From Escherichia coli (GTDB taxonomy: Bacteria > Pseudomonadota > Gammaproteobacteria > Enterobacterales > Enterobacteriaceae), in the NCBI RefSeq assembly GCF_003334255.1, contig NZ_QOWU01000015.1: a stretch of 64,000 nucleotides of DNA, one strand, 5' to 3'. This document shows, piece by piece, positions 14,280 to 14,832 of this stretch. Position 1 is the stretch's first letter. Each line of letters opens with the position of its first letter. Below the pieces are notes generated by a model. That model saw nothing but the letters and a program-made list of their open reading frames with translations, searched no databases and had not been told where the DNA came from. Position numbers and translations under genes: made by a program.

Positions 14280-14310
14280 CCTTTCCTAAAGCCAGCGCCC
14301 GTTTGCGAGA

Positions 14311-14507
14311 CGGCGGAAAGGGCCGCAGTGGATAATACACTAACAGAACAATAATAACTCTCTTTTGCTTGACAAAAAGAGAGTTACTGGCGAGTATTGT
14401 CTCCGCTGAGACGCGCTTGCATTACTACGGTAATACAACCTGCTGGAAAGGCCGCGAACCGGACCAGCAACAAAAAACCGCCTGATTTTGGCGGTTTTTT
14501 GTTTTTT
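14311..14507. repeat. copy A of a ~195-bp duplicated module (inverted repeat aactctctttt...aaaagagagtt, TTGACA-like hexamer, bidirectional terminator)
   Basis: direct sequence comparison with copy B; 5' ~90 nt and 3' ~60 nt highly similar, middle divergent. Confidence 0.75.
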
Positions 14508-14632
14508 AAAGGAAAGTGAATTTACATGTTTAAGTAATATCTTTTACCGGTTAGAATTTTTAATTTTGAGCAGGATTTGTTTATATTTGTCTGAATTCAG
14601 ACTAATAAGCCAGGTTATTTTATTACCGAACA

Positions 14633-14832
14633 CGGCGGAAAGGGCCGGTGTCGATAATACGCTAAATAAACAATAATTACTCTCTTTTGCTTGACAAAAA
14701 GAGAGTTACTGGTGAGTATTGTTTTGCTGTGAAGCACCTGCGTTGCTCATGTAACACAAGTCAACCTGCTGGAAAGGCCGCGAACCAGACTAGCAATAAA
14801 AAACCGCCAAATTCGGCGGTTTTTTATTGCCT
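14633..14832. repeat. copy B of the duplicated module; its terminator also serves convergent sseA
   Basis: cggcggaaagggccg...ttgcttgacaaaaagagagttactgg...ctggaaaggccgcgaacc...aaaaaaccgcc-loop-ggcggtttttt. Confidence 0.75.

Follow-up and report, generated by a model that had tools for sequence, protein, structure and literature searches.

The stretch of DNA analysed here, referred to as the window, comprises 64,000 nucleotides of an Escherichia coli contig (NZ_QOWU01000015.1, assembly GCF_003334255.1), and the region around the features described below is the sseB-timP(ryfA)-sseA locus of this species. It contains one toxin gene, timP, together with two direct copies of a module carrying the genes of two small RNAs, designated here TimR-X and TimR-Y. 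The features, in window positions, are as follows.

14024, plus strand: 3' end of sseB
14023-14326, minus strand: timP mRNA (ryfA), the toxin transcript (Rfam RF00126, 314.9 bits)
14180-14055, minus strand: TimP ORF of 41 aa including the stop codon, with ATG at +147 of the mRNA
14245-14263, minus strand: predicted TimR site in the timP 5'UTR (+64 to +82), type Y, corresponding to TGTTT among the variable regions of Fris et al.
14310-14507, plus strand: module 1, consisting of the first 16 nt of timP, a divergent promoter region, and timR-X followed by its terminator
14403-14503, plus strand: TimR-X sRNA (ECS011 / IS129), with the 5' seed CCGCUGAGACGCGCUUGC, stem-loops SL1 and SL2, and terminator
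14458-14666, minus strand: predicted transcript IS128 (Rfam RF00125, 260.3 bits; gathering score 80)
14508-14618, no strand: AT-rich spacer of 111 nt between the units
14619-14631, plus strand: relic of the duplicated sseB 3' end (TTTATTACCGAAC), identical to sseB 13941-13953, at the left edge of the deletion
14632-14832, plus strand: module 2, consisting of the first 16 nt and promoter of the deleted second timP (14632-14690), followed by timR-Y with its terminator
14725-14828, plus strand: predicted TimR-Y sRNA, with the seed GCUGUGAAGCACCUGCGUU at 14726-14744, complementary to the resident timP
14842, minus strand: end of sseA on its stop codon side, convergent to the timR genes

Further Rfam matches in the window, namely naRNA4 (5751-5822), the iscRS stability element (6539-6648) and sroE (27495-27586), fitted a K-12-type chromosomal context and were unrelated to the modules.

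The timP gene at 14023-14326 was recognised both as the Rfam RNA and by its TimP-family ORF, which scored 86.8 bits against the NCBIfam model NF040796 (toxic_TimP; cut-off 45), and RefSeq annotates a 41-codon timP at the same position in every E. coli genome inspected. The second unit, in which 16 nt of timP is left, did not qualify as a timP gene. The Salmonella TimP is a toxic inner-membrane protein, and a divergent adjoining sRNA of ~100 nt, TimR, blocks its translation; repression of both TimP translation and toxicity by TimR has been demonstrated there (PMC7667032). Pairing involves the 5' end of Salmonella TimR and 18 nt of the timP 5'UTR, and mutations in the TimR seed abolish rescue (PMC7667032). 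The pairing stretch lies in stem-loop 2, and pairing prevents the formation of a pseudoknot required for translation (PMC11228461, PMC13000454); G76 of the Salmonella timP is protected by TimR (PMC13000454). The predicted TimR site of the window repeats the module-2 seed on the same strand except at two positions, where A/G differences give G-U pairs in the RNA duplex. The timP position equivalent to +64 to +82 was predicted to pair with TimR in all species examined.

Whole-module alignment of modules 1 and 2 gave 88% identity. The conserved 5' part (14310-14400 versus 14632-14722) was 90% identical over 91 nt and the conserved 3' part (14436-14499 versus 14762-14825) was 84% identical over 64 nt, with a divergent middle of ~35-40 nt between them. 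The original prediction, made from the letters of the window, had placed two such copies with a divergent middle at 14311-14507 and 14633-14832, and the alignment agreed with its coordinates within 1-2 nt. It had also proposed that each copy could encode a plus-strand sRNA of ~100 nt. Indeed, both copies were full-length matches to a TimR model, and the RNA of the first copy has been observed in K-12 in published work.

Rfam has no family for these plus-strand sRNAs (TimR/RyfB is absent from Rfam 15), and their sub-threshold matches to AgrB, ohsC, OrzO-P, RNAI and the rimP leader were rejected as all of them were driven by the terminator. We gathered 80 sseB loci from other Enterobacteriaceae, using species-representative genomes and SseB synteny, and found TimR-like sequences beside sseB in Salmonella, Citrobacter, Superficieibacter and other Escherichia species. 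They were matched by EHO-1345, the probe used in published northern blots of Salmonella TimR, and therefore represent the characterised TimR family. A covariance model was built from 11 non-Escherichia TimR homologues (Salmonella, Citrobacter and Superficieibacter), and it matched module 1 at 14405-14505 (96.8 bits, E = 1.7e-18) and module 2 at 14726-14830 (77.7 bits, E = 1.6e-14), in both cases over model positions 1-100. Elsewhere in the 64 kb, the model gave only two weak minus-strand matches, located on the two terminator hairpins. The TimR consensus fold consisted of a free 5' end, two stem-loops and a terminator, with compensatory changes at 7 pairs, and it was adopted by both sRNAs of the window (z = -4.5 for TimR-X and z = -3.3 for TimR-Y). 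The sRNA of module 1 starts 77 nt from the 5' end of timP on the opposite strand, and module 2 sits likewise relative to the 16-nt stump of the deleted timP. Both modules contain a promoter of their own and an intrinsic terminator for an RNA of ~100 nt, the module-2 RNA being a predicted one.

The collected loci also included several unusual arrangements. TimR-like genes by sseB with no Rfam ryfA match were seen in Citrobacter werkmanii (L018, 3395-3494), Citrobacter braakii (L017, 1149-1247) and Superficieibacter sp. (L056, 3377-3477), which may represent antitoxins orphaned when the toxin gene was lost. A timP-timR fusion was found in Salmonella enterica subsp. arizonae (L026, 3290-3603) and Citrobacter amalonaticus (L025, 3290-3608), produced by a deletion from the target site to the seed, both being same-strand direct repeats. 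These two loci have lost both promoters together with ~63 nt from the start of the timP 5'UTR, and timP and timR now overlap in antisense.

The signals for transcription initiation and termination within the modules are listed below.

14332-14337, minus strand: timP -10 element TATTAT, read from the sequence; the module-2 copy is at 14654-14659
14375-14348 and 14697-14670, minus strand: second candidate timP promoter, TTGTCA-N16-TATTGT, from a promoter scan
14369-14397, plus strand: timR-X promoter, TTGACA-N17-GAGTAT, with the ECS011 5' end 6 nt downstream
14691-14719, plus strand: timR-Y promoter, TTGACA-N17-GAGTAT, read from the sequence, with the same architecture as in module 1
14355-14366 / 14375-14386: inverted repeat of module 1, perfect over 12 bp, enclosing the timR -35 element TTGACA (14369-14374)
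14679-14688 / 14697-14706: inverted repeat of module 2, perfect over 10 bp, around TTGACA
14469-14503: terminator of module 1, a symmetrical hairpin with a perfect 14-bp stem
14793-14830: terminator of module 2, with 19-nt arms that are 95% complementary, also lying just beyond the sseA stop codon (14842)

The spacing of the timP -10 element to the Rfam 5' end fitted the ORF coordinates of Salmonella (+145 to +261). As for the second candidate, genomic SELEX has mapped it as an RpoD promoter (TTGTCA-16-TATTGT), along with an H-NS site, to this intergenic spacer (PMC3946193). The promoter and terminator scan missed both timR promoters as well as the plus-strand terminators, the promoters because GAGTAT matches three of six positions, and conservation and folding were used instead. 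The timR promoter architecture was conserved in the four divergent promoter variants of E. coli (X, Y, Z and W) and also in most of the other genera examined, with small changes in either hexamer. Both terminator hairpins were strong and followed by a run of T. Two genomes, L003 (BL21-AI, 2366-2400) and L005 (06-00048), carry the IS3-family element ISEcB1 within the loop of the last TimR terminator hairpin, corresponding to about position 14813 of the window; the insertion leaves the 3' hairpin arm cut off from both the sRNA gene and the sseA end.

These elements largely matched what had been anticipated. A rho-independent terminator in each copy and a TATTAT -10-like element on the minus strand of both copies (14337-14332 and 14659-14654) were found where the original prediction had put them. 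Its perfect 11-bp inverted repeat around TTGACA was present in each copy, with a length to be corrected to 12 bp in the first and 10 bp in the second. The -35 elements TTGACA of the plus strand and TTGTCA of the minus strand overlap inside the loop of this repeat, which lies outside both mapped transcripts. The other genera showed a palindrome between the -35 and -10 elements of timR, with arms changed in step (CTCTC/GAGAG, CTCCC/GGGAG); it was missing from the Z and W promoter variants of E. coli. The matched change of the arms between genera hints that the palindrome may be an operator.

Published K-12 sRNA sequencing provides ECS011, which corresponds to 14403-14473 of the window with its 5' end at 14403 and gave northern bands of ~95 and ~100 nt; Shinhara et al. 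(2011) equated it with the older IS129 (PMC3175480). The same 2011 list contains no entry bearing the module-2 seed (PMC3175480). This absence could reflect low expression, or co-degradation of TimR-Y with its target. RefSeq annotates timP and neither of the two sRNAs. Among the published K-12 sRNA annotations, we found no entry for the module-2 sRNA of its own, and the literature searched, RNA-RNA interaction tables excepted, held no explicit description of two TimR copies in K-12.

The minus strand was the other side of the original prediction, by which each copy could instead hold the 5' end of a ryfA-like transcript. This corresponds to IS128, which lies above the gathering score of a family that itself rests on prediction. 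It would start at the timP promoter orphaned in module 2, pass through the scar and the spacer and stop at the terminator of module 1. A strand-specific northern blot in K-12 did not detect IS128 (PMC3175480). The IS128 family thus models the strand opposite to the real sRNA, over the deletion scar.

The origin of the second module became apparent from E. coli genomes with complete tandem units, which are in line with the proposed sibling arrangement of the ryfA/ryfB type known from Shigella. An exact-TimP protein look-up identified a genome (L096) with two timP genes 679 bp apart, in the order sseB, timP, timR, the 111-nt AT-rich spacer, the last 84 nt of sseB, the second timP, the second timR and sseA. 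The repeat unit is 678 bp, composed of the sseB tail, timP and timR with the spacer, and L096 has two complete units while E. coli 19KM1831 (L101) has three. The full junction of spacer and sseB tail was present in 157 of the 5426 complete E. coli genomes, and complete tandems are therefore unlikely to be assembly artefacts. In L101, the three units span 1030-2900 and have sRNA seeds of types X, Y and Z, and RefSeq annotates the duplicated sseB fragments as pseudogenes.

When aligned with the complete tandem, the window showed the same layout except for one clean gap of 357 bp. This gap starts 13 nt into the duplicated sseB tail and ends at +17 of the second timP; what was lost is the remaining sseB tail, the entire second timP coding region and the 5'UTR down to +17. 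Left of the second unit are 13 nt of sseB tail, the promoter of timP with 16 nt from the 5' end of its mRNA, and an intact timR. The truncation of the second copy suspected in the original prediction was thereby traced to a defined deletion. As the gap opens within the duplicated sseB tail, it also accounts for a 14-nt match to sseB in the window (14619-14632); chance was rejected as its explanation, since the complete 84-nt sseB tail stands at the position of the relic in L096 and L101. We also considered whether 14508-14631 might be a degraded timP, and rejected this, as the only match that sensitive blastn gave against timP, the window and 89 loci was the 14-nt one to sseB. The spacer stands between units in L096, L101, L004 and L090, and the same searches gave no similarity outside the E. 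coli arrays. These comparisons supported the view that the second module is a remnant of a duplicated toxin-antitoxin unit whose toxin gene was deleted.

The divergent middle of the modules corresponds to the seed of the sRNA, and timP +64 to +82 and the sRNA 5' end co-varied across strains. Three seed types were distinguished: X with CGCUGAGACGCGCUUGC in the sRNA and its complement in timP, Y with GCUGUGAAGCACCUGCGUU, and Z with CUGUGGGGUGCCUGC. They correspond to the ryfA variable-region classes CGCGT, TGTTT and CACCC, respectively, catalogued by Fris et al. (PMC5333039). Duplex energies were calculated for seed against site with shuffled controls; duplex folding of the full-length sRNA against timP was dropped, as it produced long meaningless duplexes. 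In matched pairs, a run of 17-19 contiguous base pairs began at the sRNA 5' end, with energies of -42 to -44 kcal/mol, whereas mismatched pairs reached -20 to -33 kcal/mol and shuffled seeds -17 +/- 3 kcal/mol. In the eight examined species that retain timP and timR intact, an unbroken helix with timP takes up the first 11-19 nt of the sRNA and ends at +81 or +82 of timP; it measured 15-19 nt in all but one of them. A fourth sRNA variant, W, was seen after the spacer in E. coli 98224 (L004, 1290-1423), with a different promoter region and a shortened SL1; its seed matched no timP allele seen, pairing at about -18 kcal/mol like shuffled seeds.

In the window, the timP site was of type Y, as was the seed of module 2, while the seed of module 1 was of type X. 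Module 2 formed 19 contiguous pairs, two of them G-U, with the local timP at +64 to +82 (-42.6 kcal/mol), and its seed had a single counterpart in the 64 kb, located in the timP 5'UTR, against a chance expectation of 0.01. The module-1 seed had no counterpart in timP within three mismatches in a search of the window. It formed an interrupted duplex of 18 pairs with two mismatches and three G-U (-33.4 kcal/mol), as compared with 17 contiguous pairs with an X-type timP allele. Thus the complementarity of ~18 nt between the sRNA 5' end and the SL2 region of timP was found for module 2 and lacking for module 1 with respect to the local timP. As its seed matches the surviving timP, we infer that module 2 is the cognate repressor. 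The difference in target specificity between the two sRNAs, and the matching of the surviving toxin gene by the copy beside the deleted one, were points absent from the original prediction; no mention of such a distal match was found in the literature searched either.

The types also suggested how this combination may have arisen. Each timP of the L096 tandem stands beside its own type, X and then Y, and L090, which has the K-12-like deletion, keeps an X-type timP. This suggests that the Y site was patched into the 5'UTR of the K-12 timP afterwards, by conversion or recombination. The leftmost timP of L101 has a Z-like target site beside TimR-X and is likewise matched by a distal sRNA, and target-site reshuffling hence appears to recur.

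The distribution of the types was determined in 5426 complete E. coli genomes by BLAST with chimeric queries joining a target site and a seed, a genome being counted when one place covered at least 80% of the query. The locus was present in all 5426 genomes, and both sRNA genes in ~1670; the module is thus conserved well beyond this strain, the absence of which had been named in advance as grounds for abandoning the proposal. The counts by query were the following.

X target with X seed: 2981 genomes
Y target with Y seed: 1981 genomes, up to ~130 of them possibly cross-matches to Z
Z target with Z seed: 579 genomes
Y target with X seed: 1564 genomes
X seed with Y seed: 1670 genomes
X target with Y seed: 216 genomes

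Solving these counts for classes gave ~1520-1560 K-12-like genomes (~28% of the complete genomes), ~100-200 with both sRNAs and an X-type timP, ~300 with a single Y/Y unit, ~2800 with a single X/X unit and ~580 Z/Z. A Y-type timP with only an X sRNA occurred in at most ~45 genomes, such as HH97 (L002), and mismatch-only genomes made up less than 1%. The X-type timP allele was present in about half of the E. coli genomes, and TimR-Y was the sole TimR in the single-unit Y/Y strains (L009, L094). The figures rest on BLAST coverage thresholds and disagree by ~2%, and many of the genomes are close relatives; the census therefore describes the collection rather than independent events. By these sequence matches, almost every genome retains at least one seed-matched TimR, which in the K-12-like genomes is module 2.

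Taken together, the locus is very probably the antitoxin side of a type I locus of the timPR (ryfA/ryfB) kind, a tandem which has partly collapsed and in which module 2 matches the surviving timP. The homology, the anatomy, the deletion, and the complementarity of seed and target with its co-variation over strains and species are all direct observations of the present analysis. The ancestral 678-bp unit would have opened with the final 84 nt of sseB, followed by a minus-strand timP and a plus-strand timR with its terminator, the two diverging from a common promoter region, and closed with the 111-nt spacer. The window holds a complete first unit and a second one reduced by 357 bp to module 2. 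Each module would give a TimR of ~100 nt from its TTGACA-N17-GAGTAT promoter, the single-stranded 5' end of which would pair with timP +64 to +82, and timP would be transcribed leftwards from the promoter region of module 1. By analogy with Salmonella, TimR-Y from module 2 would pair with the timP mRNA and keep TimP untranslated. TimR-X from module 1 is made, with no perfect target here, and may act in weak cross-repression or persist as a leftover; cross-repression is conceivable because the interrupted duplex forms. The orphaned timP promoter of module 2 could, in addition, drive an IS128 RNA of ~180 nt, devoid of conserved content, ending at the symmetrical terminator of module 1. The expression of the module-2 RNA and its role as the repressor of TimP in this strain are thus the predicted parts of the scheme.

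A broader interpretation was also considered, to which we give about an even chance. It holds that in K-12-like E. coli the distal orphan TimR-Y controls TimP and the adjacent abundant TimR-X is a mismatched spare, and that the sseB-sseA interval is a recombining array of up to three units with specificities X, Y and Z, the partners of which are reshuffled by unit loss and gene conversion. The two TimR copies might instead silence the single timP redundantly, so that the seed difference has no functional effect here. The duplex of module 1 with the local timP lies well beyond that of shuffled seeds, the module-1 RNA is clearly expressed, and some strains (L002) combine a Y target with the X sRNA alone, all of which would suit redundancy. 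Overproduction of RyfB1 in Shigella dysenteriae nevertheless lowered RyfA1 and not RyfA2 despite their shared flanks (PMC5333039), and the loss of rescue by seed mutations in Salmonella (PMC7667032), the tight co-variation of seed and target across strains and species and the rarity of mismatch-only genomes likewise argue for discrimination, which makes redundancy somewhat unlikely.

Nor would module 2 readily be explained as an inert relic, that is, decaying duplicated DNA whose sRNA is not made or has no role. Such decay would agree with the K-12 sRNA-seq list, which lacks its seed, and with the almost complete lack of reads at the neighbouring annotation C0614 (14643-14729). Yet the promoter hexamers and their spacing, the seed, the stem-loops and the terminator are all intact, the model built from other genera still scores it at 77.7 bits, it provides the only seed-matched sRNA for timP in the ~1520-1560 K-12-like genomes, and its counterpart serves as sole TimR in the single-unit Y/Y strains. 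We regard this explanation as improbable. Even less probable, to a degree that we hardly credit it, is that the functional product is IS128, a truncated ryfA-like minus-strand RNA of ~180 nt. The Rfam score of 260 bits, the intact copy of the timP promoter (TATTAT at 14659-14654) and the symmetry of the module-1 terminator speak for such a transcript. Apart from the negative northern blot (PMC3175480), it would span the deletion scar and a spacer with no homologue outside the E. coli arrays, it has 16 nt in common with timP and neither a TimR site nor the TimP ORF, and its only ORF, of 29 aa with GTG at 14633, begins at the scar. The reading as a partly collapsed timPR tandem with a matching module 2 was therefore preferred.

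The system and its arrangement are already known from timPR, the RyfA/RyfB siblings and IS128/IS129/ECS011; what is added here is the exact deletion scar, and the proposal that the distal sRNA would be the cognate antitoxin in K-12-type strains. The timP/TimR pair of Salmonella Typhimurium (Andresen et al. 2020, PMC7667032; PMC11228461; PMC13000454) is located at the same place by sseB and has the same toxin family, divergent arrangement, sRNA architecture and pairing site (+64 to +82). Salmonella possesses one unit, whereas the single toxin gene of the window is accompanied by two TimR genes that differ in seed, the matched one not being adjacent. Shigella dysenteriae carries two tandem ryfA genes, each preceded by a divergent RNA of ~100 nt, RyfB1 or RyfB2 (Fris et al. 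2017, PMC5333039), in a study that handled RyfA as a non-coding sRNA. This whole-unit tandem duplication, with divergent sRNAs of ~100 nt unlike each other, resembles that of the window; S. dysenteriae keeps both toxin transcripts, while the second one of the window is cut to 16 nt. The reports on IS128/IS129, C0614 and ECS011 (PMC3175480) concern the same DNA, ECS011/IS129 being the module-1 sRNA and IS128 the opposite strand over the scar, and gave no function and no link to ryfA/timP.

When seen beside other type I systems, discrimination among repeated antitoxins is familiar. In ibs/Sib, zorO/orzO and ldr/Rdl, which likewise form repeated toxin/sRNA units, a short variable pairing region discriminates the own toxin mRNA. 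These families are unrelated to timPR in sequence, while their multi-copy antitoxins discriminate in a like manner. Sib and Rdl are cis-encoded, overlapping their toxin genes, whereas the gene of TimR lies beside its target and TimR acts in trans. IS128 and IS129 themselves were reportedly described in E. coli K-12 by Chen et al. in 2002.

The knowledge of how timPR works is unchanged by these results, and their main use lies in annotation and experimental design. Rfam labels the DNA of the locus besides ryfA as IS128 only, on the strand that seems not to be expressed. Deleting the timP-adjacent "timR" in K-12-type strains removes the mismatched copy and leaves the matching one in place. With one to three units, three seed/target types and rare mismatches, the locus offers a natural data set on the diversification of RNA antitoxin specificity. 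If the broader interpretation is true, nearly every genome would keep a matched pair, and the extra sRNAs would let the toxin switch its specificity while never being unguarded.
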